A stretch of 64,000 bases of DNA from Naegleria gruberi (Eukaryota): the NCBI GenBank assembly GCA_000004985.1, contig GG738850.1; one strand, written 5' to 3'. Under the pieces are notes generated by a model. That model saw only the letters and a list, made by a program, of their open reading frames with translations, was not told where the DNA came from and did no database searches. Of the stretch, positions 4,571-62,912 are shown in pieces. Position 1 is the stretch's first letter; every line of letters begins with the position of its first letter. The translations under genes were made by a program, and so were the position numbers.

Positions 4571-5314
4571 ATGGTAAAATCAGATCAACCTACCGCACCA
4601 ACTGGCACACGTTGTAAAACATGTGTTTGTGGAGAAACAGGGTGCGAACATATCAAGCAATTGAGAAAAATGACTGGTAAAGGGAAACCATATATCAAAA
4701 GCTTTAATGAAAAGATCCAACGTTTAATAACATTAGAAATGAAGGACGAATTTGAGAAGTTTTTAAAGGGAGAATTGACAAAAATCAACTTGGATTCTCT
4801 CAAGCCAAAGACTGGAAAAGAATACGAACTTGGTATTAAAGTTGAATTTTATGATGTCATTGAAGTGAAGTGGAAGAAAACTATTCAAACATGTGACAAC
4901 TCTAACTCAAGTATTGGATCAAGTGCTAATCCACTCCGTTCTCCACAAACAGGTAATGATATCTTAAATTTTTTTGAAGAAGCCAATGAAGACAACATGT
5001 CAGATTCATCAGTCAACCTTGATGAAATGAATGAATCTCAAACAATCCATTCACAGCCTAAATATAAGTGTATGGTAGATACTCCAGAAAGTTTGCAAAT
5101 GATCTGTCTATCTGATATTGAATTGAGAAGCTATTCCAATTTAAAAACACGTTTGAGTGAAAAGTTCTCATGTACTGTTGGTAGCATCTATTTCAAATAT
5201 CAACAGGATCGTAAAAAGTGCCTGTTGGAAGATGATAGAGATTTAATGGATTTATTTAGTCGTGAATTAATAAAGAGTCAAAAGGATTGGGAAAACTTTA
5301 TAATTTCCATTTGA
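4571..5314 (+). CDS. Hypothetical protein with a C-terminal PB1-like domain; N-terminal Cys cluster (CKTCVCGETGC)
   Basis: 247-aa ORF. The C-terminal segment ICLSDIELRSYSNLKTRLSEKFSCTVGSIYFKYQQDRKKCLLEDDRDLMDLF resembles the PB1/OPCA acidic motif (YxDEDGD-like). It lies between the two inverted tRNA-Cys copies. Confidence 0.4.
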   Translation: MVKSDQPTAPTGTRCKTCVCGETGCEHIKQLRKMTGKGKPYIKSFNEKIQRLITLEMKDEFEKFLKGELTKINLDSLKPKTGKEYELGIKVEFYDVIEVKWKKTIQTCDNSNSSIGSSANPLRSPQTGNDILNFFEEANEDNMSDSSVNLDEMNESQTIHSQPKYKCMVDTPESLQMICLSDIELRSYSNLKTRLSEKFSCTVGSIYFKYQQDRKKCLLEDDRDLMDLFSRELIKSQKDWENFIISI

Positions 5315-5453: not shown

Positions 5454-5529
5454 CTGTTGTGGTGTTAAGAATTAAGACGATCACTGCAGTACCCTACATA
5501 CTAAGGCTATACAAAACTCCACCATAATA

Positions 5530-7547: not shown

Positions 7548-9149
7548 ATGCAAAACTCCAAGTCGAGGAGTTTCATCTCCGTCTTTGCTTTCATCTTGGT
7601 GATGACATTATTTACCAGCAGCAACAATCAAGTATTAGCCAATAATAATAATATTAAACTTGCTGGCTCACCAAAGCACGTCTATCAAGTTGGAGAACCT
7701 GAATTTTGGTTCCATCAACGTATCGATCACTTTAATGCATTGAACACTGATACTTTCCCACAACGTTATTACAAGTTTGTTCCGGAGGGAGTTTCAGCAT
7801 CATCACCTAATCACTTGTTGTACATTTGTCCTGAGGCTACTTGTGGAGGAACACCAAATAATTATGTGAAAAATTATGCTATGGAATTGAAGGCTACAAT
7901 TTATACTTTGGAACATCGTTTTTATGGTAAATCAGGTATGTTTTTCAATGATGATGATGATGATATATTAATTTATAATGTTGAATATTTATTAATTTAT
8001 TGGATAATATTGGAAATTTGATGAATGAATTAATGTGGAATAATGTGTGAAATTGTATGAATAATTGGAATAGTTCCTTACAAATCAATGAAGACTGTTA
8101 ATATGGCCAATTATTTAAAGACAGAAATGGCATTGGCTGACTTGTCAGTCTTTATTGAATATATTGCAACATTGCCATCAGATAATAATACTCCTCATCA
8201 ATTTATTATTGTTGGATGTAGTTATCCAGGTGCATTGAGTGCATTCTTCTCTATGAAATATCCACATCTTGTCAAGGGTGCCTTGTCATCATCTGGTGTT
8301 GTCAACTCTATTTTGGACTTTTATACTTTTGATATGCATGTTCAACAAGCTGCTGGTCCTGAATGTACTGCTCTCTTGACTCGTGCTACTTCTATTATGG
8401 AAAAGATGAATCCAACCAATTTGTTGAGAGATTTCCAAGCTCCAGCAGATATGGATATTAGAGATTTGTTCCTTCTTTTTGGTGATATTGCTGGTGAAAG
8501 CGTTCAATATGGATATCATTATGAATTGTGTAATGCCATGAAGAGTGGTAACACTAATTTGGATGAAGTTATTTATCAAAATTTCCACAATTATTCTCTT
8601 AATTTTTTCTACAAGGTATTCGAAACCTCACCATTGGATTATTACAATGGAGCTATTGGTAATGATAATTATGATCCTTCACAAGGAGCTAATGGTGGCA
8701 GATCTTGGTGGTTGCAAACCTGTTCTGAACTCTCCTATTTCAATACTGCCCCACCAAAGAATTTGCCATCCATTAGAAGTAGATGGTTGGATTTGGACTA
8801 TTTCTATGACAAGTGCAAAAAGATCTTTGGATATCCAATTAAACCAAACACTGACTTTGTCAATAACCAATATGGTGCCAAGCAATTGTTGAATACCACT
8901 ACAGGAAGAACTGTCTTTGTCAATGGTAGCCAAGATCCTTGGCTTAGAGCTGGTGTTGATATTGATCCAAAGAAATTCAGTTTCTTGATTGAATGCAACA
9001 ATTGTGGACATTGTGTTGACTTGAGAGGTTGTCCAAGTTGGGCTCAAAATCAAGAAATCAATTATAAGTGTGTTGAAAATGGTAATGAACAAGTTGCAAA
9101 GATTAGACAACAAACTTTAGCAATTATGAAAGTTTGGTTCCACATGTAA
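7548..9149 (+). CDS. Serine carboxypeptidase S28 family (Pro-X carboxypeptidase / DPP2-like), 2 exons
   Basis: Signal peptide present. S28 N-terminal motif FWFHQRIDHFN...FPQRYY, and the nucleophile motif GCSYPGALSAFFSMKYPHLVKGALSSSGVV (GxSYxG). Intron about 7936..8073 (GTATGT...AG, 138 nt) joins FYGKS|VPYKSMKTVNMANYLKTEMALADL, restoring the conserved S28 ...YL..E.ALADL segment. Exons: 7548..7935 and 8074..9149. Confidence 0.8.
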
Positions 9150-9188
9150 CATTGAATGAAAAAAACTATTTATGTAAATTCTTTGTTT

Positions 9189-12230: not shown

Positions 12231-12420
12231 TTTTTATTTTTTATTTTTACTTTTTATTTTTTATTTTTATTATTTTTATGATTTGATATTGGGNNNNNNN
12301 NNNNNNNNNNNNNNNNNNNNNNNNNNNNNNNNNNNNNNNNNNNTATAAATGGGCATGTGCCGTGCCAATATCAAATCATAAAAATCATAAAAATATAAAA
12401 ATAAAAAATAAAAATCTGGT
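12231..12420. repeat. Assembly gap (50 N, 12294..12343) embedded in an imperfect AT-rich inverted repeat / palindrome
   Basis: Left flank ...atttttatgatttgatattggg and right flank ccaatatcaaatcataaaaat... are exact reverse complements. Further out, tttttattttttattttt motifs are mirrored on both sides. Confidence 0.7.
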
Positions 12421-17254: not shown

Positions 17255-19065
17255 ATGAAAGTATTGCCAATCAATGATTCTTTAATCATTCAACAAGGTT
17301 CCCTCGAGAAGGAATCATCAACAAACGTGCAAAAACATTCAGCCAGTGTTCGTAAGGCCATTAACAATAACAATACCTCCTCATACAAGCTGGAAGATAA
17401 TGAGTTGGAATTTAACTTGTTTCGCTCGGGGAGAGGATGCTGTCTTGATGGATTGTGTTCTATTAAGAGTGTTATTCTCTCATTCTTAATTGTCTCTCTA
17501 CTCTTGACATGTGCTGTGATTTGGGCTGTACTGATGGTGCTCATCTCACAGGAGGTGAATATAACGATGGGCATTGCTTCGCTGGTTGTTTGGTGCACGT
17601 GTATTGTTTCGGTAATTGTCTTTGGTGTGGTATCCTCTGTGGTGGTCTATTATTTGATAAGGAAACCTATGAGAGAGCTAACCAGACAACTCTTCACAAT
17701 GAAATCATTGAGATTCGACTCGGTTATCCAGCTCTCCTCCATAATGTATGAATTTATTCCCCTCTTCAGGATCTTCTTAGAGATGAACAATTTAATGAAG
17801 GAGATTAGACCATTCATTCCAGAATCTATTACCAGATCTTCAGAGTATGAAACTGAGAGTAATAACAGTTCAGACAATCAGGAGCAACAGAAGGAAATTC
17901 AAATGATGGCCATGAGAATGTCACTTAAAACATCAAATTCTATTGCTCAATTGGGTAAAGCTCCATCAACAGCTCTGATCCAAAATTCCCTCAAGTCTGT
18001 AAATTCTGTGGCCAAATTGAAGAGAGCCATGTCGAAAATGAGGAAATCAATGGAAGGAACTGGATCAGAAGGAGCAAGTTTCCAATCCAAAGACGGCGTG
18101 GAGCAACAGCAACATCTGCAGGTTTCACACCTCAAATCACAACCAATTTGGGTCTTGGATTGAATTCACACATTACCACCATTATTGTCATTCAATTCAG
18201 AAACTTTGATGGCAAGTGTTATCCAAACACATCCGATCTCGTCTCTGTATTCACCCTCTTGTTCCAGAAGGTTCAGAGTGCCAGTAGACAATTCAAAGGA
18301 AGATGCTCTATCATTACTCCAAAGGTTTTGATGATTAGTTTTGAGGTGGGAAAGAATGTCGAGAGAAATGCCCTATTATGTGCACTTCAATTGGAGAAAC
18401 AAATGCAAGCAATTAATTCACAACTTTGTGAACAAGTTAATCTCCCACCTATTCAGTTTGGTATTGGAATTTCAAGATCTGAATGTTTGATTGGTAATAT
18501 TGGAACGGCTGCTGTTAGATTTTCTGCTCTGATTGGAGCTTGTTCCAGTAATGCATTGAGATTATCATGTTTGTGTGCCTATTTGGGAACTTCCATCTTG
18601 ACAGATGAATCTCTCATGTTGGCACTTCAGAGAGGATTCATAACGAGACCTGTACATTTTATTAGAAAGACATCGATATTTGATGGTGAGGTGTTGAGCT
18701 TGGAAGATGGTGATGACGACAATAAGCAAACCATTTATCAACTACTCGGAGAATCCAAACTTCAAGATGATGAATGGCTCTACGAATTGCAGCAACACGA
18801 AAACAATAACAAGTACAAGGAATTCGATAGAGCTTTTGATTTACTTCGAGTTGGAAGTGTAGATTCTAAATTGTTGGCAGAAATTTGTGATGTATTTGGT
18901 TCTTATCTGAGTAAATATCCTGAAGACAGAGTTGTCTCACTCCTATACACGCAACTGACAGAATTATCCAAGCTAGATGCCAAAGACGTGGAGAAGGCAG
19001 TTAGATCTTTCAGTTTGGAAAAGACAGACGTTCCACTCCATACTGATCCTTCTTTTATATTGTAA
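17255..19065 (+). CDS. Membrane-anchored class III nucleotidyl-cyclase-homology protein (2 TM + HAMP-like linker + cyclase homology domain); reading frame disrupted near 18060-18160 (possible pseudogene or sequence error)
   Basis: ORF 17255..18163 encodes 2 TM helices and a linker. ORF 18148..19065 has no ATG (it starts at TTG in the track) and encodes a cyclase homology domain: IVIQFRNFDGK (beta1, metal Asp), IQFGIGISRSECLIGNIGTAAVRFSALIGACSSNALRL (the GIHxG...R..FGDTVN.ASRM region, with Asn and Arg kept). The second metal-binding Asp (the IGDAYM position) is not evident. The two frames overlap between 17959 and 18160 with no in-phase GT..AG intron available. Confidence 0.5.
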
Positions 19066-19444: not shown

Positions 19445-20969
19445 ATGAAACTGATCCAATTGGTGATTGCTGTCTGTATGATAGCTTGTATAGTTCTTTC
19501 CTCTCACACTGTTTCACCACAAGAAGTGAGAGACAAACACTTGAAGGTATGCTTTTGTCAATTATTGTATATTGAATAACGAACTTTGGTTTCAATACTA
19601 ATAGGGTGTTGTTATCCATCAACCACCATTCGTATTTATCGATAGAAACACAACAGATCCCTCTCAAAGATACACTGGTTTTTCAATTGACTTGATTCAA
19701 ACTCTAGTTTCCAAAATGTCAAATGTTTCCATTGAATTTTATGAAGTTCCTGATGGTACCTTTGGCAGTCCATCAACAACAAGTGGAAACTGGACAGGAA
19801 CTATTGGTGAATTAATGACTGGTCGTGCAGATGTCATGGTCGGCCCTTTGACAATTACTCAACTAAGACATCAAGTCATTGATTTCACAACTAGTTTCTT
19901 TGATGTTGGTCTTTCCATTTTAACAACTAAACAAGGAGAAGAATCCAACCTATTCTCCTTCTTGTTACCATTCTCATGGGAGGTTTGGATTTTGATATTT
20001 GCCAGTGCCTTGATTGTTGCCTTATTGACTTGGTTTTTTGATCATGTTTCTCCATATGGACATTCGAAACAAGATGATGATTCAAAGAATGAATTGGATT
20101 TTAGTGGTTCTTTAATCAATGCTTGTATGACCATTTCTGGTCAAGATGGTAATCCAGGTAAAAGTTGGTCAACCAGAGTAATGCTACTCGGTTACTTTCT
20201 CTTCGTCATGATTATCCTCTCCACATACACAGCCAACTTGGCAGCTGTCCTCACCACAAAAGTTCAATCCACAAGAGTAACTGGTCTCTCTGATATCAGA
20301 ACTTATGGTTTCAAGTTTGCTGTGGCCAAGAATTCAGCACCTGCATCCTTCATCTCCTCTAGTGAGGAAATGGCAGATATCAAAAAGAACATGGTTCTAT
20401 ACGATTCTCTGGACGATTGTATCAAGGCACTCAGAGAAGGTCAAGTCGATGCTCTGATATGGGTTTCTTCCATTCTCGAATATATGGCCAACCAGCCACC
20501 TTGTGATACCTTAATCGTTGGTGATTTGTTTAATCCTGGTAATTATGGACTGCCATTTGCGAAGGGAAATTGGATGATCGGACATTTCTCTTCAATTCTC
20601 TTGTCGATGAGAGAAAGTGGACTTGTGGAAAAGTTAAAGAAAAAGTGGTGGATTGAGAAGGGAAGTTGTTCATTGGTTGCCTCATCACAGGAAGCATCTG
20701 GAGTGAAGATTCAAGACTTGGGAGGTATCTTTTTGATTTTGGCTGGTTTTATATTTGTTGGTGGTTTGATTTTGATATTCGAATTGGTGTATAGAGCTAT
20801 CTATGATAAGACGAAAAATAGAACTAAACATTTAAAGTATTTAAATAGATTCTTGGGAGGTGAGAAACATCAAGAAAGTGATAAAGAAGAACAAGAATTA
20901 AAGACAACCAATATTGCTGCTTCCACTCAATCTCTGCAAACAGATGAAAACAAAATTATCAATCAATAA
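19445..20969 (+). CDS. Ionotropic glutamate receptor-like channel (S1-M1-P-M2-S2-M3 core, no large N-terminal domain), 2 exons
   Basis: Exon 1 is 19445..19546 (signal peptide). Intron 19547..19604 (GTATGC...AATAG, 58 nt). Exon 2 is 19605..20969. Ligand-binding lobe GNWTGTIGELMTGRADVMVGPLTITQLRHQVIDFTTSF, the canonical M3 motif YTANLAAVLT, a pore-loop region and S2 lobe (ALREGQVDALIW ... GLPFAKGN). Confidence 0.8.
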
Positions 20970-20994: not shown

Positions 20995-23900
20995 CTACCA
21001 GAAAAGGAAACTGAAATTAAGCTTTCTAATAACCCACTTTCTCATTTCATCATAAAAAATCATCAAAAACATCCAAGGAATTGGATACAACCAAAAGTCA
21101 ATAATCATAAATCTCGTATTGAAAATATAATCTCCAATGAATGGAACATAAATTAAAATCACCAACAAGCAAGCAGAATAGATTAATCCAAAATAGGTCA
21201 TTAAATTACCCAATAATCCATGTGTGAAAATGCTCAATCGACGAGTTTTGCAACTGAATAGAGTGGCCCATTGACAAATGACAATTGTCATGAAAAATGC
21301 TGTTTGTGCAGTGCATAGAACGTTATGTTGATACATCTTATCCAAATACATTCCAGTTTCTTCAATGTAAAGCTTTTTATCCGAATTGATATCGAAATAA
21401 TCCTTGCTAGTTGCTTCCCAAAGATATTTTGGTGGAATTCCATAATAAGCAAAGACTAGGAAGTAATTTGTAAAGCATGCAAGAGTTTCAATTACTCCCA
21501 TTTGGAGATAGGAAAAGATTAATAAGGAAGAGCTTACTAGTGGTTGATTCTTGGTACGAGGTGGAATGCTCATAATGTCAGATTCGGCTGTTTCGTAGGC
21601 GAGACTGACTGCACTGATGAGCTCCTTTTTAAGATTTTAAATTTGATATATTTGGATAATATAAAAATTGATAAATTAAGAATTTTCCAAATAAGTAAAA
21701 CTTACAGTTCCCAAATCAACACACAAAATCAATAAACCTGTAATTGGAAGAGGCATGCTAAATACAATAAAAACTAAATAAGGGAAAATTTCTGCAGATA
21801 AATGTGAAACAGTATAAGCAATTGACTTTTTCAAATTGTCAAAAATCAATCTGCCTTCCTTAATACCATTCACAATCGAAGCAAAGTTATCATCCAACAA
21901 GATTATAGCAGCTGCTTCTTTAGAAACAGCACTTCCTGAAATATTCATAGCCACACCTACATCTGCCTTCTTTAGAGCAGGTGAATCATTAGTTCCATCT
22001 CCTGTCACAGCGACACAATGCCCCAATTCTTGGAATTTTGTAACGATAATCAATTTTTGTTGAGGTGAAGTTCTGGCAAAGACAATTTGCTTCTTTTTAA
22101 GAATTTGTTTCCATTCCTTAGATGTCAACTTGTCAATTTCTTCTCCGTGTAAAACAATGGCATCAGCTCTACTGTATGGAATGGTTTTTGGATCACAACT
22201 TTCTTCCTCTGCGATATCGTCAATGGTTCTGGCGTCTGATTCGATAATTCCAACTTGTTTGGCTATGGCTTTGGCTGTGGCTGGGTGATCTCCTGTGACC
22301 ATGACTACTTGAATTCCTGCTTTCTTACATTGTCCAATACATTCAGGAACTCCTACTTTTGGAGGATCAGTCAATCCAGCCATTCCCAAAAAGCAAAGAC
22401 CTTCCATTGGAATGGATTGAGCAATTTGATCAGAAGTTTGTCCAGATTTCTCAATTCTTAATTGTTCCTCAACCAAATGTTCATCAATGAAAAGTTGGGC
22501 AAAACCCAAAACTCTCTCACCCTTAGAAGCAAAGAAATCATAGGCGTCCTTAAAATTTTGTTTCCAATTATCGTCCAATGGTAAAGTTTGTGAGCCAACT
22601 CTGATGTGTGAACAACGTTGAATGATTCTCTCTGGGGCTCCTTTCATGAGCAACAAAACTTTGGAATCAGTACTGGCACTGTCAGTGGTATTGGTAGTCC
22701 ACTGAGGGAGGTGATTATTCTTTCTAATACTTAACATCCACTTGTTTTTAGAATTGAATGGAATGGAATAAAGTTCAGTATAATCAGAACGAAACTCTTC
22801 AATGGTAGCACAATCAGTTCTTGTCTGAATGAATTTAACTAAAGCTGTCTCACTAGCATCTCCTTCACATTCTCTGTCCAAAATTGGTTTTCTCAAATTG
22901 TCTTCCTCTGGCACGAAATAAGTTTTCGAGCAGAGAGCTGAACATCTTCTCAACATTTGATCAGTTGTCAATTGTTCTTCACCTTCTTTTGAGTAACTTG
23001 TTAATGGAGTTAAGGTGCTTGGCTTTTGGGTCATGTATCTGTCTTGGTAATCTACAGAAGAAACTCTTCCATCTACCCATAGCTCAACAACTGTCATTCT
23101 GTTTTGTGTCAAAGTTCCTGTCTTGTCACTACAAATAACTGATGTACTGCCAAGTGTCTCAACATGCTCAAGCTTTTTAACGAGGACATTCACTGCCTTT
23201 AGACGTTTAGCACTGACTGTTAAGCAGACAGTTACTGTAGGAATCAATCCTTGTGGAATGTTAGAAATGATTATACCAATAGCAAATAAAAAATTAGTGA
23301 ACCAACTGTTTCCAATAGCAAATCCTAAACAGAAGAAAATAATGGCCATTGTGAAGGCCAGAACAGCAATCTTTCTAACAAAACTGTCAATTTCTCTTCT
23401 GAGTGGAGTTTTCTTTTCAGTTGAAGCTCCTGCCAATAAAGCAATTTGACCAATGACAGTTTGATTTCCACATCTAATTACGATACCATAACCACTTCCT
23501 TCCAAAGCCAAAGTTCCAAAGAATACCAAATTATTTGTTTCCAAAGGATTCTTTGAAGTCATTTCCACACTCCTTGATTGAGGTTCAGTTTCTCCTGTCA
23601 AGGAAGCATTATCAAGTTTTAGTTGTGAACAAGAAACCACACGTAAATCAGCTGGAATTTTATCACCACCCTCAATTCTAACCAAATCACCCAAAACCAA
23701 TTCTTCAACTGGAATTTTTTGTGGAATTCCATCACGAATCACCATACAGCTGTCACTTTGCATTTGTTGAAAACTCTGCAAAACCTTCTCACTCGATCTT
23801 TCCTGAACCAATGTAATGGTAGCATTCATAATCACAATAAACCACAAGATGACACCCAGAAATATATTCGGATAGGATTCAGTTGTTCTCTCAATGGCAA

Positions 23901-24585
23901 CGTTTAGGAAGGAAAGGAGACCAGCAACGATGAGAAGAAGGGCAAAGAGAGAGGTGAATTGTTCGATGATTTTAAAGATGAAAGGACGTTTTTTGGGTGG
24001 TGTGAGTTGATTGGGACCGTTTACTTTAAGTCTTTCGCTGGCTACTTGTTGGGTGAGACCCTATAATTATATATTCGAATGTACAAAAATATATTAGAAA
24101 GTCCAATACATGAATACATCAATATTCGAAATACTTACTGTTGATTTCTCTGGTTTGTCTTGATTAAAGCTCGTTCCATAAGTTTCGCACACTCTCTCAA
24201 CACTCAACTCGTGTTCAGAAATATCGATTGCTTTCTTCTTTGATTTCTTGATGAATTTCACTTCCTTGGCACTTTTTTGTTTCATGAGTTGAGGGTTTTC
24301 TTGGGCAGTTCGAATAATATCAATCGATTGACGAGCTTCTTCAAAGTACCTTGGAATATCATTCGACAACATTCCACTACTATTCGAAACATTATTCGAA
24401 ACAGCTCCAGTGAGTGTATGACCAATAATATCCAAAGAAGCAGATGATGTAGTTGTACTAGTTTCAATTCTATTGTCCATTTGATGTTTTCCAACATCAA
24501 TAATAATCTCTTCAGTATTGGCAGATGACATTTTGCATCTTTTTTTTGATTGGTAATAATCAAAACTACAAACTACAAACTTCAA
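20995..24585 (-). CDS. P-type ATPase, Na+/K+-ATPase alpha-subunit-like (type IIC), 3 exons
   Basis: Exons 24585..24139, 24060..21706 and 21624..20995, with introns 24061..24138 (GTAAGT..TTATAG) and 21625..21705 (GTAAGT..AAAAAG). Contains the phosphorylation motif ICSDKTGTLTQNRMTV, TGES-like LTGETEP, TGDHP, VAVTGDGTNDSPALKKADVG, and Na/K-type segments KNPLETNNLVFFGT and ELISAVSLAYETAESDIMSIPPR (LAYE..ESDIM). The alternative start is the internal ATG at about 24531 (MSSANTEE). Confidence 0.85.
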
Positions 24586-24882: not shown

Positions 24883-27800
24883 TTAGAAACTTAATTTATC
24901 TCTTAATTGAATGAGTTGTTTGGAAATATCGGAAAATTCTGGTCTATTACTTGGATCCATATCCCAACACTGTTGCATGAGTTTCGTATAATCTTCAGTG
25001 ACCGATTTGAGTACTGAAAATGGAGCGCTAGTTTCTTGTCCATACACATTCATCCACTCATGCAACTCCTCGTCATTTCTAAATGGTATAATTGGTCTTT
25101 CATTATTTAAAACTTTCATTGGAACTGTATATGGTTGATCTTCACAAGTTGCCTTTCTGAAATGGTGAATTTTAGAGCTAGCTGCATTCAGATATGGATT
25201 TTCCAAAAAGTATAATTCATACATGACAATTCCAAATGAGTAGACATCAACTTTGTGTGTAATCTTTGTAGATGATCCCTGTAGACCTTCATTTCCAATA
25301 TAAAACAAAGTTCCAACATTGACAGTCATTGAAGTTTGTAATTGATTGTTTCCAATGATTTTGACCAAACCAAAATCACACACCTTACAATTATTGGATT
25401 CATCCAAAAGAATATTAGCTGGTTTCAAATCTCTGTGAATCACTGAGGGTTGAAGGGAGTGTAAATAATTCATTCCATTACTCACTCCAATTAAAATATT
25501 AATCTTTTCCTTCAATGATAAAAATTCAATATTTTGCTTGCATTTGTAAATAATCTTGTCCAAGCTTCCCTTCTTTACAAACTCTGTAATCATATACTTT
25601 GAGGTCTCGGTAATACAGACACCATAGAATGAGACAATATTTGGATGTCTGAGTCTTGAAAGAATGGCAGCTTCCTTTTCAAATTCAAAACTTCCTTCTG
25701 CAGTTTTCAATGATTTAATGGCAACTTCAGTATTGACCCAGAGTCCTTTATAGACATTTCCGTAACCTCCCTCACCAATACGTTTGGTAATTTCAATATC
25801 CTGAACTGGAATAACTACAGAACTTTTAACTGTGTTTTGGTTCATGTGATCGTTTTCCAAAAGTGGAGAATCATAATCTGAATTATGTTTTGATTTGTAA
25901 TAACTTGTTGATCTTGAATGAGTATAATTTGTTTCACTATCACTCATTTCAAAGACAATTTTGTTGTCTAAAATTGTTTTTTCCAAATTCTTTTCTGCAT
26001 TTTCCTTCCTTTTAAGTAATCTTAATTTGGAAATAATTTTAGAAGTGCAATAGAATATTAAAAATCCCAAAATAGTTCCACCCAACAACATGAGAATACC
26101 CACAGGCACTGTGATTGAAATAATGAGAGTTTCCAAATCAATTACATTTTTGCAAACAAAAATTTGTTGTTCATTAACAAATTCTGCAACCATTCGTAAT
26201 GGCATTGGACAAGGCAGCAATGTAATATTAAAATTGGTAGTTACCAACGATTCTGAGATTATTTTCACATTGGCAGTTGTGTTTTCATAGATTGCCTTTG
26301 TGAAATAGACACTTGCAATAAATCGCTTATTTCCAGCAATGGATGAATTAATTTGTAAATAGTCTGAAATTATTTTGAAATTCTCAGATTGGAGTGGTAA
26401 TTCTAAACCCAGGTTTCCCAAAAATCCCATTTCTATTGTAATATTCTGTCCAGATTCCACAGAAGGGCTCACATAGTCAATTGTTAAATTTCTGCCAATT
26501 GATGAAAAGTCATCTCCAAACATGGAAGCTCTATTACCTCTGAATGTATTACCTGGTCCAATTATACTATTATTTACACTTGATACTAAAATTGATTGTT
26601 CAAAAAAGTAGAAGGCACCTCCTGTCATATTTGCAAAATTGTCAATCAGTGTGAAATCTTTAAATAAGTATGGAGATCTATTCCAATACGTGAAATACCC
26701 TACACACAAAGCTCCTCCTCTAATAGCTCTATTTCCAATAAACTCAGCTCCCCCATAAGATCCAGGACCATGTCCAATAGAATGGATGGTTAGAGCTCCA
26801 CCACAACCCAGCAACATTCCAGCGATTGCATTTCCAACCTCTCTCTTGATATAATTTCCAATAAATTTGGTATTTTCAAATTGGGTTACCAACATGTCTT
26901 GACGAATGAATAAGGCACCTCCAGATTGTAAAGATAAATTTTCCTTAAATAGGCAATTAATAAATTTCATGATAAAGCTATTGGTTAAGAAAATAGCACC
27001 ACCAAAAGTATTAGCTCCATTTCTAATAAAAGTTGAATTGGCAATAAAACTTTCAGTAAAATAGGCGTTTTCTATCGAATATTACAAAATTAGAAATATT
27101 TTAGAAATGAACTTACCTGAAAACGAAGCAATACTAATTGCACCACCAAAAGCAATAGCACGATTGTCTGCGAATGTGCAATTATCCATATTTAGTGAAA
27201 CAATATCACGGAATCCCAAAACTCCTCCTTCATTACCAATATTTCTATAAAACTCACTGTGATTAATAATAGTTTCAGAAACGGATGTAATCTCAACCAC
27301 ACTCTTAACATTCTTATAAGTGTCCAATACATTACAATCAAATATCGTTGTATATTCTATCATTAAATTTAGTATAGCTCCCAATTGTGCAAACAAATCC
27401 AAATTCTGAGCTACACAATTTGTAATTTTAACCTTATCAACAAATTCCACAGCAAGTGCAGGTAAGTAATATTTTGAAATTTGAAACTTGGTGTTAGAAA
27501 ATAGAGTTGAATCAGCTTTTGTGATTACAATATTCGATCCAATACAAATCGAGTCCTTAATCTCCAATGTCTTTAATCCAACAGCTCTAAAAGATAAAAA
27601 ATCAAAGTAGGTTTCGGATACCTCAACATGTCCACAATTTGCAAAGGTAAAAGTAAATCCAATTGCACCTACAAAGACAACATTCTTAAATTTGACAGTT
27701 TTCACATTTGAAAAATCCAAACTGTAAGCTTCTTTAGTACAGTAGACTTCTTCGAATATGACATCTCCAGAGGAAAAGTTGTAAACTTGATAATTAGCTA

Positions 27801-33595: not shown

Positions 33596-33667
33596 GCTTT
33601 GTAATAAAATAAAAGATTTTCTAAGGTCGCCTATTCATATTCATCCAGAATGATTGCAGTCATAAAA

Positions 33668-44520: not shown

Positions 44521-45450
44521 TTAACCACCATAAAATCTATAAAGATATACCAATTTGGAATTACTGTCAATTTCCAATTCTTTCAATGTTTTAGCATATT
44601 CACTTAAAGGAATTAACTTTGATTTGTTAGCTATTACAACGTTTTGATCTGTTACACACAATCTATCTTCTAATCTATTGATAAACATTTCAAACGTATC
44701 ATTTGGATTCATATAAACTTTCATTTTCTTTCTAATTAATGATTCGATAGTCAGTTCAATTGAGCTGACTTGTGGGGAAAATTTGGAAATTTCCTCATTT
44801 TTCAACAAATCTTCACCAACAAATCTGAAAGCATTTGGATCTTGATTCAAAGCTGTCAACACAATTTCCCTGTCATTCTTGAGAGATTCTCCAACAAATT
44901 CCAATAATAATCCAGAGTGTCTCACAATTTCCAATATAAAACGTCTATCATTCAATAAATCTTGATTGGAAACAAATTGAATAGCTCGTGGATCACATTT
45001 AACAGCAACTCTGCAAATTTCCTCATCTTCTCTCATCTCAACACTCAAATTTTTAAATAGAATCCAATTTTTCTGAACTAATTCCTTGTTAACTACTTTG
45101 GGATCTCTTATTTTCAATCTTTTCTCAAATTCATCATGTAAAATAGCTTGAGAAATTAGTTCAGTGTCATTTCTCAAACTTTTGTGTAAATATTCGAAAC
45201 CTTTACTTCCATACTTGTTAATAACAGCAAGAGCCACCTCCCGATCTAAACTAAAATCGAATGGTTTCCGACTCGGAATGAAGGGCACATTCGAATTTCG
45301 CATCTGATTTATAACCATCAATTTTCTAGAGAGCTGATTTAATCGTTCCTTTGATTTCTGTAGCATTTCAATTCTAATAGATTGTAGTAATGGATCATCA
45401 TTATTACTGACAAAGTCTATGAGTAAAATTGTTACACAGTGTTCTTGCAT
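44521..45450 (-). CDS. DUF4116-like repeat protein with a C-terminal ubiquitin-like (beta-grasp) domain ending in Gly-Gly
   Basis: Three or four ~35-aa repeats of the form LRNDTELISQAILHD / MREDEEICRVAVKCDPRAIQFVS / LKNDREIVLTALNQDPNAFRFVGEDL. The last ~70 aa, MKVYMNPNDTFEMFINRLEDRLCVTDQNVVIANKSKLIPLSEYAKTLKELEIDSNSKLVYLYRFYGG*, have ubiquitin-like spacing and the terminal GG immediately before the stop. Confidence 0.45.
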   Translation of the reverse strand: MQEHCVTILLIDFVSNNDDPLLQSIRIEMLQKSKERLNQLSRKLMVINQMRNSNVPFIPSRKPFDFSLDREVALAVINKYGSKGFEYLHKSLRNDTELISQAILHDEFEKRLKIRDPKVVNKELVQKNWILFKNLSVEMREDEEICRVAVKCDPRAIQFVSNQDLLNDRRFILEIVRHSGLLLEFVGESLKNDREIVLTALNQDPNAFRFVGEDLLKNEEISKFSPQVSSIELTIESLIRKKMKVYMNPNDTFEMFINRLEDRLCVTDQNVVIANKSKLIPLSEYAKTLKELEIDSNSKLVYLYRFYGG

Positions 45451-45506
45451 TCTTTTTTATTTTTGGATTTTTTAATATTATTCACTATTAATAGTTTAGT
45501 TTCGAT

Positions 45507-48500
45507 TTACTTTTTTCTACTGTCCTGCATTTCCCACTCACTATCCATTGGATTTTCCTCCAAATCAACTTCTCCAATCTTGACCAATTTCTTGGCAAAC
45601 TTTGGATTTAAAGCAAAATTCTTATATTGCATTTCAGGTTTAGGTTTTTCAATTTTAGTTTCTGGTTTAAGGCAACCAATTAGAATAAAGATACAACAAG
45701 TGAACATTAGAATGACTATCAAAACTGCCATGACAACAAGAGGGATCCATAGAATATCATTACCAGAGAATGTTTCAGGAAGAATAATTGGTTTAGCTTC
45801 TTCCACAATAATGATCTCTCCCCTTATTTCTAAAATACCTATCATTTGATTATCAAAACATGTGCAAACGCCTGTTGAGTTATCAGCCAGAGAAAATGAA
45901 CATGAAGGTGCATTAGTAATCTTTCCATCACTTAAAGTCTTGCATTCATATTTGTAAAAAACGTTTGAATTATTGTAGCCAACTTGTTCAGTAAGTGGAA
46001 TGAAAAACATGATAGGGGCTGTTAAGTTGTTCATATTTACCACTTGATTACTCGAGTTGACTATTGAAAGGAAAACAGTTGTTTTTGATTTGATGCTTGT
46101 TTTTGACTTGATAACTCGTTTAGGTTCTACAACCACAAACGAATCTGAATTGTATATTCCTTGATTATTAATGGAATATAATGAATAACTCCATGGTTTC
46201 ACGCTTGAGAGGGCAAGTTTTGGTAAAGTGACTTTTACACTCTGTGATGTAATATACATTTCTGAAAGCTCATCAGCAAAATGTCTATTTGAAGTAATGG
46301 TTGAATAACCAACATTGCTACTAGATGGCTCACTCCCTAATATCATATTTCTTTTGGATAATTCTGAAATGTAAGTTGAAAATTTCAAAAACTCAGAATC
46401 ATATTTCAAGTTGAATTCTAATTTGTTCACATTTTCGAACAATACTGAAATAAATCCTGACAGCAACTTTTCAACTCCATCTAAGAGTAAAATGTTCTTA
46501 TTTGAATAAGCTTCGCTCAAACATTTTTCAGAAGCATGAATCAAAAGCGACAATCTACCCTCATCTAGGGAGCTTACACTTTTAGAAAGTGAAAATGCTG
46601 AATAAATAAAGCTGGTGACAGATTCAGTAGTTAATGGATTAAGAGATTTTTCCCTTCCAACTTCTTCATTAGCCAAATTGGTTATAAAATCAAATTTAAG
46701 CTCCTCTATCAATGCATCAACATTTGAAGTGGAGGTAATTCTTTTTGTTGTTGAGTTTGACAATAGTTGGTCCTTAATCATTGTAACAATTGAGGTGATG
46801 GTTGCCGTGTTAAATACATTTTGAGAAAGAGTTTCTTCTTGCTTTTCCTGGATAGATCTTCTTGTCCAAGTCGAAATGAGGGATTTCAATTCTGTAATTT
46901 CACTAACAGTTGGTGGAATAATGGCGACACTGGTTTTGACAATCATATCAGTGTCGGTATCATGATCTACAATCTTAATATAGAGATCTAAGGTTCCAGA
47001 ATTTGATACTGGTAAATATTGAGACATTGATTTGTTTGATGATTGAGCAGAGCTGGAGGCTATTGGGATATTCAAACCTGAATAATTATCAATAAAACCA
47101 TATTCAAAATCAAAGGAGGGTTCTGTTTCACAATTTGGACATCTAAAAGAAAATTCTGTGCTAAGAGCATAACCAAGAGAAGGGGTTACTGAACATTCAC
47201 ACAGCTTTGGGAATTTCACAACCCTGAATTGATAAGACAAAGTTGAAGATAACCAACTAGATTCATCATCCACTCTTAGAGTGAGAATATAAACGCCTTC
47301 ATCCATATATTGAGTATCTATAATAATAGAGTTTGAGATAGACAATGGATTTCTCATTTTCTTTAGCAATGCTTGATCTATTTTAGTCCCATTAATCCTC
47401 CAAATTCTTTGAACGCGATTGATATCTTCAACTCCTTGAATTCCAACTTGAAGATTTAAAATCTCACCCTTTTTTACACTCTTTGGGTTCACAGAGCTGT
47501 AGAGAAGATTAATGACTGGTGGAATGCCAAACTTTGAATCTAAAGGGAAATTAATTTGTAAAGAGGAGGAGACATTCCTAAAACCTTTCACCACATTAAG
47601 GTTTATATCTATAGGAGCATTCCAAAAGCTTTGATTGTCTGGCTTGAAAATGGTTACATAGTTTGGTTCAGAATTGAAATTTAACAGAGAAGAACAAGTG
47701 TCCCCGTTCATAAAACAAGACCATAACATCTGTTCCTTCTCTGTTGTGTGGTCATTGTCAGTGAGGGAATATGCAAGAACGTATTTTGTCGAGGAGGCTT
47801 CTACTGCGAATAATTGCAAATCCAACTCTGAAATTCTAGTTTGAATGTTAAAGGTTGATGTAAATTTAGATGTTAAATACTCATTCATCGAGTTAAATTC
47901 AATTGAAAATGAATAGAGAGAATCCATCAGTGTAGAATATCTTGAAATAACCAAGTTGTTATAGTTATTTACAGAGAATGTTAGAGGAGGCCCATCTACC
48001 TTGGCATAGCTTGTAGTATAGGTAAAGTTAGAGGATACACAATTTGGATTGATTGTCTTTTTGAATACAATCGGTAAATCACTCACACTAACAACTTTGG
48101 AACCAATGAATACAGGAGGTTGTGGATCCGAGTTCATATCAAATGTGAAGGTAGTTTCACTTTCTGTTTTGAATAAGGTACTTTTCACTTTCAGTTTGAA
48201 AATGTGAACACCTCTGGAGTAGTCATTGAATTTGAAGAAGACAGTCTTAGCACCATTATTGTTGGCTTTCTGGAGGATAGTGTTAATCTTTGAATCTAAA
48301 GAGATAACACTCCACTCAAAAATGACAGGCTTTACATCTCTACTATAACTCTTCGATCCATCCAGAATGAAATCATCACATAATGAGTGTTTCTCTATTC
48401 TCACAGTAGGTGCCAATGGGGATGATGGAGGACTAACATTCATTTCAACAAAGGAGCCATTTGAATTCTCTCCTAGTACTTCCACATTGATATATAGGAT

Positions 48501-53878: not shown

Positions 53879-56800
53879 ATGTTTGGCAAGTGGTTCGGAA
53901 GTAAGAATAAAGCAGCTGATGATGATTTATCACAAGTTTCAGCCAACACAAATAATGATGCCTTGACTACAACGACATCATCCATTAGCACCATTCCAAA
54001 ATGTTTACACAATTTGAAATTGGACGATTTTGTGGGTGTGAGAATGTTGGGAGAAACCTATTCTGATAAGGCCTCTACATTATTACCACTCGTTTCACAA
54101 CGTTTGCAATGTCATGTGACCTATCCAATTGTTCAGGTTGTTTCGACCATGACTTTCCGTAATCAAAATCAAAAGTGTGTAGAGGGTGAGTTGCTATTGC
54201 CAATGCCAGAGGGTGCAACCTTAATTGGTTATGCTATGGAAGTTGATGGTTCTTTAATTGATGCTGTCCCAGTTCAAAAAGAAAAGGCAAAACAAGTTTT
54301 TGAAGAAGAAGTGAGATCGGGAAGAAAAGTTGCCATGGTAGAGAAGGTAGCCCAATCCAATTCATTCAAAACTCGTCTCTATCCATTGCCATATAATACT
54401 GACAAGACTGTTCAAGTTAAATATCAAATGATTTTGAACGAAACTGTACAAAAGAATAATAATTCTCAAAGTGGAAAAATTAATGGAACTGCTTGGGTAC
54501 CGCTCTCCTTTATAGATTTTGCTGCATTGAGAGATGATACAAAGATTGAATTTACTCTCAATCAAACTTCATTGCAAGGGTTTGAAACTCAAGTTCTCAT
54601 GAGTGTTGCTGGAGGTTCCTCTGGTGTGGAAGATCAATTATTATGGACAAGCAAGAATGCTAGTGCAAGAACTGGTTATTTTGAACTCAAAAAGTCAGAT
54701 CTCAAAGATTCCATGACAGGTTTCAAATTGCAAGTCACAAAGCAATCCGAAGATGTTAGAGATATGTTGCTTGCTTCTGAGAATGGTTACTTTATGGCAT
54801 CTATTCCTGTTCCTCAACTAAGTGATGAATTGAGAAATAAGAGCCGTATTGGAAACAAGGTTCAAATTATTTGGGATTGTTCAAATAGTTCAAAGAATAG
54901 TCATGAAAAGAACCTTAAGAACTTAAAGTTCATCTTGGAAGGAATTGCACCATCTTCTATCTATTTCACCTCATTCAGCTCCGATATCATTGAATCAACT
55001 GAATTTAAATCAGTATCTGATGCTTTGAAGCACGTGGGTGGAGTGTTTTACGATGGTGGTTCAAATATGCTCCTCCTTGATAAGGGTGTTATCAACAAAT
55101 CAGCTGATTATTGTATTGCATTCACTGATGGTGTTCATACCTTTGGTTTTGAAATTAGTCCATTGGCTAACTTTGAAAAACCAATTTACTTTATCACCTC
55201 TGGCTCGGTTATCAATTCACATTTATTGAAGCACATTGCAACAAAGAGTGGTGGTGTCTATCTCAATGCAAATGAACTCTCTGAAACCGAACTATTGAAG
55301 GCTATTGGCAAACCTGTTCTTTCTTTTGCAGTTGCTGATTTTGAAGATTCTGATATGGAGGAGGTTTATCCAAACGAACCAGTTAGTCTTACTGAAGGAG
55401 GTGTGTTCAAATTATTTGGTAAATTCAAGAATAGTGGAAAGGAGAGTGTTAAAGTTGCTGTTTCATTTAGATATGGATCTTCCGTATACCATGTTCAAGA
55501 ATTGGACTTACCGGTCAACTTGGAACAATGCGAAGCTGCTATTTTACCATTATTGTGGGCTCAACAAAAGATTGATTCACTCTCCACATTCCCTCACTTA
55601 TTCAAAGATGAAATTAGTAGACTTGGACAAGAATTCAGAATTGTAACAGATGATACTACACTTTTAGTATTGGAAACTTTGGATCAATACTTGAAGCACA
55701 ATATTACTCCACCAGCTTCCCTTTCCAATGTATTCAAACAATATACTGAAACAAAGAAGAATGAGCAAGAAAGTGAAGAACGAAGAGAAAAGGAAAAGAT
55801 TGAAAGAATTGTCACTATGTGGCAAGAAAGAGTAAATTGGCATAACCGTGATTTCCAATCTGTGACAAAAGATCAGAAAATTTATCATGATGCTTCAGGC
55901 GACAACGATGATGAAGAAGAGTGTGAATGTGATGACTTTGATGGTGGGGTACCAGAAATGGAATGTTGCCCTAGTGAAACCCTTTGTTGCCAATCAGCAG
56001 TACAAGAGGATTGTTTAATGTTGGACAGAGAAGAATGCAAAGAGAAGTGTTCTGAAGAAAGGGAGGAGAAATCAGACAAGAAACCTAAAAAGAAAAAAAA
56101 GGAAGGTTCCTCCAAGCAATCAAAAGGAGTTTCTGGATCCATCAATATTAAGCCTTGGAGTCCAGATGCCTCATACTGCAAAGCCATCTCAACAGCCAGT
56201 GATCCTTACAAGGAATATTTGAAACAAAGAGAAAGCTATACTGACTCACCTGCCTTCTACCTTGATGTTGCTGACTATTTCCTTTCAAGCTTGAAAAATT
56301 CACAACTTGGTGTCAGAGTTTTATCCAACATTGCAGAATTAGAATTGGAAAATATTCAATTGTACCGTATTGTTGGATATCGTTTAGATCAAGCTGATGC
56401 TCTTGAATTAGCTGAATGGGTGTTTGAGAGGGTAAAATCACTTGCTCCTTACGAACCTCAATCTTACAGAGATTTGGCTCTTGTTAAGGAAAGACTTGGA
56501 AAATATGAAGAAGCCATGCACTTATTCAATAAGGTTATTACAGGAAAGTGGGATATGCGTTTTGATGAAATTGAAATGACTGTTGCTACTGAGATGAACC
56601 ATCTCTTAATCAACGATCCAAACCTTCCAATTATTGACAAACGTTTCATTCATAACTTTGAATTGGATATTCGTATTTCAATGGCATGGGATGTCAATGA
56701 CACTGATTTGGATTTACACGTTCAAGAACCAGCTGATAAAGGTGGTGAACATGCCTATTTCGGACACAATAGAACAAAAATTGGAGGTTATGGTAAGTAT

Positions 56801-57084
56801 TCAAAGTAATATTTGTAAATTAATTTTTTATCAAATTAGTGAGTAGAGATTTCAGACAAGGATACGGACCTGAAGAATACATGATTAAGAAAGCTCCAAA
56901 AGGTCAATATAGAGCTACCACCAACTATTACAGTAGTCATACACAGACACTAACCGGAGGCACAACAGTTTTATGCACCTTTTTCACTAACTACATGAGA
57001 CCAAATGAACAAAGACAAATGTCAACCATTAGATTAGCCACCCACAGATCCGATGTAGTTGTTTGTGATATTCAAATTGATTAA
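53879..57084 (+). CDS. VIT - vWA-like - DUF2135-type C-terminal domain protein (vault/inter-alpha-trypsin family architecture), 2 exons
   Basis: VIT-domain-like N-terminus (LQCHVTYPIVQVVSTMTFRNQNQKCVEGELLLPMPEGATLIGYAMEVDGSLIDAVPVQKEKAKQVFEEE ... FKTRLYPLPYNTDKTVQVKYQ). The C-terminal WDVNDTDLDLHVQEPADKGGEHAYFGHNRTKIGG | VSRDFRQGYGPEEYMIKKAPKGQYRATTNYYSSH matches the DUF2135 pattern (TDLDLHV.EP.G...Y..N..T..GG ... GYGPEEY ... G.Y...VNYY). Intron 56793..56839 (GTAAGT..ATTAG, 47 nt) joins ORFs 53879..56809 and 56839..57084. Confidence 0.65.
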
Positions 57085-58484: not shown

Positions 58485-59975
58485 TTATTCTTCCCATTTG
58501 GCGTGGAAAGCACCCTTCATGTCAGTTCGTTCATAAGTGTGAGCACCAAAGAAATCACGTTGAGCTTGAATCAAATTGGCTGGCAAACGTCCTCTTCTGT
58601 AAGAGTCATAATATGCCAAACTTGAAGAAAGGGCAGGAGTTGGAATACCAGCTGAAATGGCCATTTGGATGATCTTTCTCCATGCAGCTTGTCTTTCAGC
58701 AATTTCCTTATTAAAATCTGGGTCCAAGAACAAACTTGGCAAGTTTGGATTGAGATCATAGGCATTCTTAATACGATCAAGGAAAACAGCTCTAATGATA
58801 CAACCACCCTTCCAGATACGAGCAATTTCACCGAGCTTCAAATTCCATCCATATTGCTTGGAAGCTTCAGCAATCAAATTCATACCTTGAGTATAAGAAC
58901 AAATCTTTGAACAGTAGAGAGCATTCTTCAATTGTTGAACAAAGACCTTCTTGTCAACAGTTTCAGTCAAATCGTTTGGAGTTGGACCAGTCAATTGAGA
59001 TTCAGCACTCAATCTTTCATCTCTCAATGATGAAATATAACGAGAGTCAAGAGCAGAAGCCATAGTTGGGATAGCAATTCCTCTTTCAGCACCTTCTTGA
59101 ACAGTCCATTTACCAGTACCCTTACTACCACTCTTATCTACAATCTTATCAACGAGGTGACCTTCACCCAAATCGTCCTTCTTCTTGAAAATCTTGCTTG
59201 TAATTTCAATAAGATAACTCTTCAATTCAGAATTATTCCATTCAGTGAAAGTTTCAGCAATTTCTTCATTTGTCAATTTACCAACACTCTTCATCATGTC
59301 ATAAACTTCAGCAATAAGTTGCATATCTCCGTATTCAATACCATTGTGGACCATCTTGACATAATTACCTGATCCTCTTTCACCAATATATGTGACACAA
59401 GGTGGTTCATTCACGAGTGGAGCAGCAATCTTTTCCAAAATATGTTTGATTTGATCATAAGCTTCAATTGGACCACCTGGCATCAATGATGGACCATGTC
59501 TAGCACCTTCTTCACCACCACTAACACCCATACCCATGTATAATAATCCGAGCTCAACAGCCTTCTTGGCACGCTTTTCAGTATTCAAGAACCATTCGTT
59601 ACCACCATCAATAATAATGTCACCCTTTTCCAAAAGTGGTGACAAGAGTTCAATAGTTGAGTCAACTGGGTTACCAGCTTGAACAAGCATAATAACCTTA
59701 CGTGGCTTGGAGAGACTGTTTACGAATTCTTGCATGGTTTTGAATCCAGCAAGTTGATAAGAACCCTTTCCTTCGTCTTCTGCTCTTTTAACCTAAACAC
59801 AATTTAAATAATAGAATAGAAAAATTCAATCAATTAAAAAACAATAAACACATACTGTGTGTTCAGTCTTTTCATAACTTCTATTGTAGACTGAAATTTT
59901 AAAACCCTTATCAGCAATATTCAAAGCCAAATTTTGACCCATAACAGCCAATCCGATCAATCCGATATCTGCCAT
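58485..59975 (-). CDS. gnd: 6-phosphogluconate dehydrogenase, decarboxylating (oxidative pentose-phosphate pathway), 2 exons
   Basis: Exon 1 is 59975..59856 ([43 protein letters not shown](P)-binding GxAxxG). Intron 59793..59855 (GTATGT..GTTTAG, 63 nt). Exon 2 is 59792..58485, with classical 6PGD motifs ([51 protein letters not shown]). Confidence 0.9.
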
Positions 59976-61204: not shown

Positions 61205-62912
61205 ATGATATTAAATAGTATTGTCATTCTCGGAGCCAGTGGAGATTTGGCTAAGAGAAAACTCTTCCCTGCCTTGTTTACAATTTTCAAAGAAGGATTT
61301 CTCGGAAGTGCTTGGAGAGTTATTGGTTATGCCAGATCTAACTTGACAAAACAAGAATTAATTGATACACACTTATTACCATTCCTTAAGAAACACGATA
61401 AGAAAGATTTGGATGCCTTCTTTGAACATGTTTTTTATCAAGCAGGTCAATATGACAAGGAAGAAGATTTCCAAGCTCTTAACAAATTGATGGAACAATG
61501 CGAAATTGAAGGTGAAAAGATTTTGGAAGCTGAACACAAATCTCAATTGGAACACAAGTGTTTGACCGATGATGAAGTGTTTGATGACTGTAAATCTCCA
61601 ACTGCTCCATTCAAACCACGTCGTCACAGATTCTTCTACTTATCTTTACCTCCAAATGTTTTCCTTAGCTCTGCATCAATGCTCGGAAGAACTTGTAAAT
61701 CTCAAACTGGATATAATAGAATTGTTATTGAAAAGCCATTCGGTAGAGATTTGATCACTTTCAAGAAACTTTCAAATGGTTTATCTAAAGTTTTTGGAAA
61801 GGATGAAATTTACAGAATTGACCACTATATCGGAAAGGAAGTTGTTCAAAACTTGCTTGTTCTCAGATTTGCTAACGTAATTTTGGAACCATTGTGGAAT
61901 AGAAACACAATTAAGAGTGTTCAAATCATTTTCAAGGAAGAATTGGGAGTTGAAGGAAGAGGTGGCTATGTAAGTACTTAATCATATTGTGTGGAAATTT
62001 ATTCATTTCAAATACAGTTCGATAGTTATGGTATCATCAGAGATGTTGCTCAAAACCACTTGCTCCAAATTTTGGCTCTCATTGCTATGGAACCACCAGT
62101 TACATTGAGCCCAACTGATATCAGAAATGAAAAGATTAAAGTACTCAAATCAATTGAACCTGTCAAGATGGAAGATATCGTAGTTGGTCAATACAAAGGA
62201 AAGGTAATTAATGGTGAAAAGGTTCTCGGTTACAGAGAAGATCCAAGTGTTGCCGATGATTCTATCACACCAACCTATGCTGCCTGTGTCCTTAAAGTTA
62301 AGAATAGAAGATGGGATGGTGTTCCATTCTTCCTTGAATCAGGTAAAGCTCTTGATGAAAGACTTGCTGAAATCAGAATTACCTTCAATGAAGTTCCAGC
62401 CAACTTGTAAGTTAATCTACTTTTTATTCAGCAATATTAACACAGATATAGATATACACATGCTGTAGTTAGTCCAAATGAATTGGTTATCAGAATTCAA
62501 CCAAATGAAGCTATCTACTTTAACATTGTAAATAAGGTTCCAGGTTTGGGTGAAAAACTCTCTGAATCTCAACTTAACTTTACTTATAAGACATTGTATG
62601 ATGCCAAGAAGATTCCAGATGCTTACGAACGTCTCATCCTCAATATGGTTCAAGGAGATGAATCTAATTTCTTATCAGAGGATGAACTCAAGTATTGTTG
62701 GCAAATCTTTGATCCAATTCTCCATGAATTGCAAGAAAAGCTTGTTCAACCAGAGGTATGTATTTTGTAATGTATTTGATTGTCTCAAATCGAAATTATA
62801 GCCATATCCATTTGCCAGTGCTGGCCCAACAGCAGTTCATTATTTGAGAGCTCGTTATGGTTTAGTAGCAAGCAAAAATGTGAGTGTTCTTACTCGCTAT
62901 TCTAATCTTTAA
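61205..62912 (+). CDS. zwf: Glucose-6-phosphate 1-dehydrogenase (oxidative pentose-phosphate pathway), at least 4 exons
   Basis: Exons 61205..61969, 62018..62406, 62473..62755 and 62802..62912, with introns of 48, 66 and 46 nt (GTAAGT..ACAG, GTAAGT..TTAG, GTATGT..TATAG). Motifs GASGDLAKRK (NADP binding), RIDHYIGKE (active-site RIDHYLGKE), NVILEPLWNR, YGIIRDVAQNHLLQ. The 3' end is uncertain: a further 66-nt intron (62880..62944) would make the stop 62959 instead of 62912. Confidence 0.85.

Follow-up and report, generated by a model that had tools for sequence, protein, structure and literature searches.

Within a 64,000-nucleotide (nt) stretch of contig GG738850.1 from the Naegleria gruberi NEG-M reference assembly (GCA_000004985.1), hereafter the window, a membrane-anchored protein with a class III cyclase-like domain is encoded in two overlapping frames, raising the question of whether the interval 17255..19065 holds one gene or two, and of what broke the frame. 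The first open reading frame (ORF1; 17255..18163, + strand) starts with an ATG, encodes 302 amino acids (aa) in the register in which the position modulo 3 is 2 (register 2), and ends with a TGA at 18161-18163. The downstream frame (register 1) is open from 17959 to a TAA at 19063-19065, with 369 codons uninterrupted by a stop, and the two frames overlap in different registers across 17959..18163, roughly 200 nt. This overlap had been described in a first-pass annotation of the stretch, as had the lack of an ATG at the head of the catalytic frame, and both observations hold: the first ATG of the downstream frame, at 18331, lies already within the cyclase-like domain. The gene as assembled has a disrupted reading frame, as a pseudogene would, with one frame shift.

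The frame break is also present in the public record, where the deposited annotation consists of two separate "predicted proteins". The translation of ORF1 is identical to P0009 (NAEGRDRAFT_63221, EFC48567.1; 302 aa) and that of 18403..19065 is identical to P0008 (NAEGRDRAFT_63222, EFC48568.1; 220 aa). Both were returned by an exhaustive profile search, while a word-indexed protein search missed them although they are identical to the window. No mention of either locus tag was found in the papers searched, and a search of the 64-kb window found no second copy of the gene. The N. gruberi genome is a Sanger assembly of 40.9 Mb with 35% GC (PMC9928731); the window has a composition of 33-37% GC, is densely packed with genes and is interrupted at 12294-12343 by a scaffold gap of 50 N, which marks it as part of a gapped draft assembly.

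Comparison with relatives established that 17255..19065 is a single N. gruberi NEG-M gene with a product of ~603 aa. All seven close relatives (P0001 of N. gruberi, FDP41_011863/011864 of N. fowleri, C9374_000916/000917 of N. lovaniensis and two environmental proteins) are continuous across the linker that precedes the cyclase-like domain, and a search with the joined protein returned homologs only in Naegleria and on two metagenome contigs. When the tandem gene pair of N. fowleri and a metagenome copy were read as DNA, each proved to be one uninterrupted single-exon ORF (1725, 1914 and 1773 nt, encoding 574, 637 and 590 aa). For the comparison with paralogues that the first-pass annotation had proposed there is P0001, an intact and continuous N. 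gruberi paralog on another scaffold. Homology of the upstream frame to this paralog reaches ~18090 ('SEGASFQSK' here, 'SEVSSVFNSS' in P0001), and that of the downstream frame begins at ~18094 ('RRGATATSAGFTPQITTNLGLGL' here, 'REFGSNLGSGFSPEFKKNFGLGL' in P0001); the final ~24 codons of ORF1 are out-of-frame read-through up to the TGA. With one base restored, the interval yields a coding sequence of 603 aa without an internal stop, and at its start the M-[KR]-V-x-P motif is kept in homologs. The parts of the gene are as follows.

17255..18163, + strand: ORF1 as assembled, with the N-terminus, two transmembrane (TM) spans, the HAMP-like segment and the variable linker (identity to EFC48567.1).

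17468..17548, + strand: predicted TM span 1, residues ~72-98 (hydropathy; aligned with TM1 of relatives).

17570..17662, + strand: predicted TM span 2, residues ~106-136 (hydropathy and alignment with relatives).

17663..17824, + strand: HAMP-like two-helix segment, directly after TM2 (family linker alignment).

17825..18138, + strand: low-complexity, poorly conserved, length-variable linker holding the frame break (alignments with relatives).

18087..18114, + strand: likeliest site of the missing base, where register 2 gives way to register 1 (insertion scan and codon usage).

18139..18753, + strand: class III cyclase homology domain, catalytically degenerate.

18403..19065, + strand: public gene model NAEGRDRAFT_63222, 220 aa, with an internal Met as its start (identity to P0008).

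18754..19065, + strand: C-terminal helical domain with the motif DDEWLYELQ and the stop TAA at 19063-19065 (model helices, alignment).

Register 1 can be reached from register 2 by the addition of one base or the removal of two. A scan of single-base insertions against P0001 gave its top alignment score at 18087-18093, around the AAA run at 18089-18091, and scores collapsed for switch points beyond 18120, while codon usage placed the optimal frame switch at 18095-18114. One base is thus most likely missing from the linker within 18087..18114, for example from the AAA run itself or from the GC-rich GACGGCGTGG just 3' of it. No other part of the protein is so poorly conserved or varies so much in length as the linker (124 aa in the N. 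gruberi paralog vs ~55 here), which makes up ~15% of the gene.

Could the frames nevertheless be separate genes, or be joined after transcription? Gene fission, under which the public annotation would be right to treat 63221 as a membrane protein and 63222 as a small soluble one, each with its own gene, is scarcely credible. GenBank and UniProt both carry the two gene models; however, the split form is found in none of the relatives, the earliest start codon that the downstream frame offers is at 18331, and a start at 18403 leaves out 88 residues, β1 to α2, at the head of a compact α/β cyclase fold that is modelled as one unit with a predicted local distance difference test score (pLDDT) above 90. 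The part so removed, 18139..18402, is ~85% identical to the paralog, a conservation equal to that of the remainder. Judged from the predicted structure, the 220-aa public model is cut too short to fold, and the entries NAEGRDRAFT_63221 and NAEGRDRAFT_63222 ought to become one, or to carry a note that they are halves of a single frameshifted gene. Joining of the two frames in the mRNA by an atypical short intron, or at translation by programmed -1 ribosomal frameshifting, is very unlikely too. An enumeration of all phase-restoring GT/GC..AG and AT..AC pairs found 45 stop-free GT..AG pairs in the interval, by itself a weak criterion for an intron, where the first-pass annotation had recognised 18078..18121 (44 nt) as the only phase-compatible candidate. 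Among them 17955..18121 (167 nt) has a fair donor, G|GTAAAG, 44 nt is a common intron length in the window, and the shift required, -1 or +2, has the classical direction of programmed frameshifting. Against this, the two candidates have 45% GC (17955..18121) and 52% GC (18078..18121), whereas the real introns elsewhere in the window, ~11 clear cases read off from exon frames, span 44-138 nt at 15-26% GC (for example 21705..21625, 24138..24061, 27116..27072, 56793..56839 and 61970..62017, and further 62407..62451, 59855..59793, 7936..8073 and 19547..19604) and use the donors GTAAGT or GTATGT, rarely GTAAAT or GTTTGT. The candidates at the break have neither the donor consensus nor the AT-richness nor the non-coding content of these native introns: they are open in the upstream frame, have positive coding scores and are homologous to the paralog linker, and the earlier view of 18078..18121 as coding-like sequence stands. 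No intron occurs at this position in the relatives read as DNA (the N. fowleri pair and the metagenome copy), and every relative is in one frame. A spliceosomal intron was rejected on composition, donor, coding score and absence from relatives, in keeping with the earlier claim that no splice junction lies at the break, and programmed -1 frameshifting was rejected because the overlap contains no in-register X_XXY_YYZ slippery heptamer anywhere. Stop-codon reassignment as in ciliate or Euplotes-like codes was also rejected, on the sequence alone; the organism is Naegleria, and the sequence past the TGA is non-homologous.

This leaves the alternatives that the first-pass annotation had offered, a sequencing indel or a recent pseudogenisation by frameshift. 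In a relative-rate test at the protein level with six outgroups, the 308 residues after the break had 11 unique changes here and 11 in the intact paralog when the majority outgroup was used (11-21 here vs 9-25 in the paralog with single outgroups). There is thus no rate acceleration downstream of the break, and relaxed constraint, as multiple lesions or faster substitution, was not seen, the frame shift being a single lesion in 1.8 kb; the gene has evidently been constrained until essentially now. With a single lesion and no acceleration, two explanations are left for the break: an artefact, or a mutation that arose extremely recently and may be confined to one allele. We lean slightly, by inference and at about an even chance, towards an assembly error: the base would have been lost in base calling or when the consensus of the draft Sanger assembly was built, for instance if sequences of unequal linker length were wrongly merged, and the organism's gene would be intact. 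The leaning follows from the lesion being single and undecayed, a pattern that errors always leave and only the youngest pseudogenes share, and from its position in the ~15% of the gene where haplotype length differences could be mis-merged. Several points weigh against it. No long homopolymer surrounds the break, the longest runs being 3-4 nt; the rest of the window has no other indel-type break (no other overlapping-frame break was found among its ~35 genes), so that the assembly is generally accurate; and the existence of the intact paralog P0001 means that the loss of one copy would be tolerable, making a real recent pseudogene plausible. Indeed, a real loss of the base, through a frameshift that arose very recently in the NEG-M lineage, is fixed or on one allele and gives a young pseudogene or null allele, has a substantial chance, if one short of even. 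The break stands in the deposited reference, from which the halves were annotated; the paralog on another scaffold, with 76% identity in the C-terminal part, could stand in for this copy; the gene family is large and redundant; and 64 kb without another indel-type break do not point to an error-prone assembly. Yet the gene has only this lesion in 1.8 kb, its downstream frame of 369 codons has no premature stop and its substitutions are not in excess of those in the paralog (11 vs 11), and such a frameshift would therefore have to be extremely young; moreover, a random inactivating mutation would have a chance of only ~15% of landing in the variable linker.

A suspected second break at 13327/13388 (- strand) proved to be the gap between two genes that share a frame, and a scan of metagenomes for a near-identical copy gave only distant bacterial cyclase domains. 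Whichever the cause, the frame break itself amounts to a gene model split in a draft reference, an ordinary finding without wider significance. The wider interest of the gene is limited to the family-wide loss of catalytic residues.

The first-pass annotation had suggested a search with the cyclase profile PF00211 and an alignment of catalytic residues. The profile does not match: the window protein has no hit at E<=1, and neither it nor its six closest homologs have one at E<=10. More distant members pass the PF00211 cut-off of 21.9 bits (for example P0025 with 40.7 bits and P0013 with 27.2 bits), and 23 of 60 relatives match at E<=0.01. The cyclase-homology fold, with its βαββαβ core, is nevertheless present in an AlphaFold 2 model built from 119 sequences (an 8-sequence input gave a pLDDT of 51 and was uninformative), the best structural matches of which are bacterial cyclases: Cya2 (2w01), CyaB (3r5g), CyaC (1wc1) and Rv1625c.

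Alignment to 2w01 revealed that the catalytic residues are lost. The second metal-binding Asp (β2-β3 turn), already described as seemingly lacking, is replaced by Lys ('FMGDGILVLF' in 2w01, 'IITPKVLMISF' here; codon 18322-18324), but the first (β1) is gone as well, with Gln in its place ('ILTSDLRGFT' in 2w01, 'IVIQFRNFDG' here; codon 18193-18195). The Lys/Glu substrate-defining position is Ile. As for the transition-state Asn and Arg, which had been thought to be kept, the Arg of the N-x-x-x-R pair (helix α4) does align, but the Asn comes one position too late, its canonical site being taken by Ser, and neither is invariant, since both sites vary in close homologs (Thr, Lys). By contrast with such variation, Q299, K342 (in a Pro-Lys pair) and many neighbouring residues are invariant in seven close homologs. 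Of 164 domains aligned from the wider family, 10 have Asp at metal position 1 and 56 at metal position 2, and the Asn and Arg sites are unconserved; distant members with both Asp residues intact were found in Percolomonas, Entosiphon and N. lovaniensis. With Asp changed to Gln and Asp to Lys, the cyclase domain, as far as its aligned residues tell, cannot bind the two catalytic metal ions. Judging by these residues, it probably makes no cAMP or cGMP. The degeneracy is old, kept and family-wide, and is therefore unrelated to the frame break. The description of the gene as a degenerate cyclase is thus borne out, but the suggestion that it depends on a heterodimer is not: in N. fowleri and N. lovaniensis these catalytic residues are missing from the tandem paralogs too, so that they could not complement each other as heterodimers.

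Upstream of this domain, the anchor of two TM helices that the first-pass annotation had proposed is supported by hydrophobic spans at residues ~72-98 (Kyte-Doolittle 19-residue mean of at least 1.6 at window centres 70-96) and ~106-136. The loop between TM1 and TM2 has ~9 residues (SQEVNITMG), at the position where larger relatives have a dCache ectodomain of ~300 aa. After TM2 follows the HAMP-like segment (KPMRELTRQL...EFIPLF...MKEIRPFIPES), for which the family consensus over ~55 residues is 'KPlxxLxxqfxxIxxmxLdxvxxxxSxFxExxxIyxxLxxxvxWLkEfksFiPE' and in which a Pro and a Glu are invariant in a linker alignment of 40 family sequences. The Pfam HAMP profile (PF00672) matches neither the window protein nor any of 60 relatives. 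A search of PDB sequences with the family linker profile (hmmsearch) aligned it over its full length with entries for the HAMP domain of Af1503 (2lfs, 3zrv, 3zrx, 2l7i, 2y0t) at sub-threshold E values of 0.5-1.3, and hhalign matched its Pro and Glu to those of Af1503 HAMP with a P value of 3.6e-4 and a probability of 37%, again sub-threshold. These alignments make 'HAMP-like' a fair description of a segment whose membership of the HAMP family is not established. At the other end of the protein, the C-terminal domain has helices at model residues 213-289, and its D211, E212, W213 and Y215 are invariant across 14 relatives. Weak TPR-like Pfam matches in the C-terminal domain of relatives give a hint as to its type.

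If it behaves like TM-HAMP receptors and dimeric cyclase domains, the protein would probably form a membrane-anchored homodimer and work as a dimeric receptor. Its cue would come from the membrane or the cell interior, as there is almost no extracellular loop, or else it would serve as a partner to relatives that bind ligands. Its output would be passed on by conformation or docking, with the dead cyclase domain and the C-terminal helices as the output module, and not through cyclic nucleotide synthesis.

The earlier description of the architecture as a bacterial-type layout, unusual in eukaryotes outside a few protists, was right as to the layout, but this layout is not rare in N. gruberi and belongs to a large family. 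The profile search returned 1810 representatives at E<=1e-3, at least 161 at E<=1e-10 (clusters at 50% identity, and a lower bound) and 16 at E<=1e-30. The family is, on these matches, mainly one of heterolobosean and related protists in which most members carry a dCache ectodomain. The next relatives of the gene are proteins of ~800-860 aa from Naegleria and Willaertia, together with metagenome sequences, in which a dCache_1 domain between the TM helices is followed by the same linker, the cyclase-like domain and a helical C-terminus. Such heterolobosean dCache receptors (C9374_006834, C9374_013833 and C9374_014379 of N. lovaniensis and ABK040_005495 of Willaertia magna) are homologous to the gene from TM2 to the DEWxYEL C-terminus, with profile E values of 1e-28 to 1e-35, and most have likewise lost the first metal-binding Asp. 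Unlike them, the gene described here, P0001, FDP41_011863/011864 and C9374_000916/000917 have lost the ectodomain, leaving TM helices ~9 residues apart, and have an invariant Lys (K342) at the second metal position in all seven aligned close sequences. By its sequence the gene is therefore an ectodomain-less member of the dCache receptor family.

In bacterial membrane-anchored class III cyclases with a HAMP linker, Arthrospira CyaG being one, the order of modules is the same: a membrane anchor, a HAMP-like two-helix segment and a class IIIb-like cyclase domain. These bacterial cyclases, which include the Rv3645-type of Mycobacterium tuberculosis and its dCache-bearing Rv2435c (PMC4822843), are active and keep both metal-binding Asp residues, the substrate-defining residues and the Asn/Arg pair, whereas here all but the Arg are changed, a C-terminal helical domain is added and membership of the HAMP family is not established. 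The class III adenylyl cyclase-like ATP-binding protein of Pseudomonas aeruginosa (6yii) offers a structural precedent for a non-catalytic domain, with only the fold in common. Degenerate halves are also known from pseudo-heterodimeric cyclases, namely the C2 domain of mammalian adenylyl cyclase (1ab8) and the subunits of soluble guanylyl cyclase (3uvj). Domains of the C2 or soluble guanylyl cyclase-β type keep the residues that they contribute (substrate-defining residues, Asn and Arg), which are unconserved here, and in contrast to those systems no complementary partner is evident, the tandem paralogs lacking the same Asp residues.

In most members of the family the cyclase homology domain has lost the first metal-binding Asp and the other catalytic residues while being strongly conserved. 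We consider it an evenly balanced proposition that a sizeable share of the "cyclases" of Naegleria would therefore be pseudo-cyclases signalling through protein contacts or nucleotide binding, with the two-TM subfamily as a branch that has shed its ectodomain. An earlier study noted a 'bacterial-type adenylate cyclase' with a Cache domain in Naegleria and ascribed eukaryotic Cache domains to horizontal transfer (PMC4822843). Naegleria species have been reported to encode ~80 or more cyclases (PMC9928731). Such a high count is often read as a sign of rich cyclic-nucleotide sensing; if many of these proteins are dead enzymes, as the survey of residues suggests, that inference needs revising.

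Within the two-TM subfamily, the N. fowleri genes (7602-9515 and 10001-11725 in the N. fowleri sequence) and those of N. lovaniensis (P0003/P0006) each form a head-to-tail tandem pair with ~70% identity between its members. In N. gruberi the two copies, found on separate scaffolds, are closer to each other (76% identity) than are the members of the tandem pairs, which suggests independent duplications. Synteny with N. fowleri was too weak to be of use for the neighbouring genes. The public model of the paralog P0001 has 516 aa and starts at MKSLRFD inside the HAMP-like segment, without the N-terminus and the two TM helices that all relatives have; it may be mis-modelled, or interrupted upstream.

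Several other features of the window were noted. The next gene downstream (19445-20969, + strand) encodes an ionotropic glutamate receptor-like protein (Lig_chan, Lig_chan-Glu_bd) with a signal-peptide-like start, and has one 58-nt intron (GTATGC..TAG, 19547-19604). The minus-strand neighbours at 13327/13388 are an F-box-like ORF of 573 aa ending at 13385 and, ~58 nt away in the same frame, an ORF of 235 aa starting at 13327 with a mitochondrial-presequence-like N-terminus, a very tight gene spacing. Two 89-nt tRNA matches, at 4079-4167 (+ strand) and 5366-5454 (- strand), score 54.7 bits each against Rfam, are identical at 87 of 89 positions and stand inverted around an ORF at 4571..5314. They were not called by ARAGORN, have an apparent short intron after the anticodon loop and, with the anticodon GCA, are probably tRNA-Cys genes. 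Further RNA genes stand among the protein-coding genes: a 5S rRNA gene at 33667-33785 (- strand; 105 bits), tRNA-Asp(GTC) at 34326-34396 (+ strand), ~540 nt from it, and tRNA-Phe(GAA) at 42672-42744 (- strand), ~9 kb from it. Finally, an uninterrupted ORF of 2297 aa occupies 45507-52400 (- strand) and probably continues via a 59-nt intron (45510..45452) into 44521..45450.

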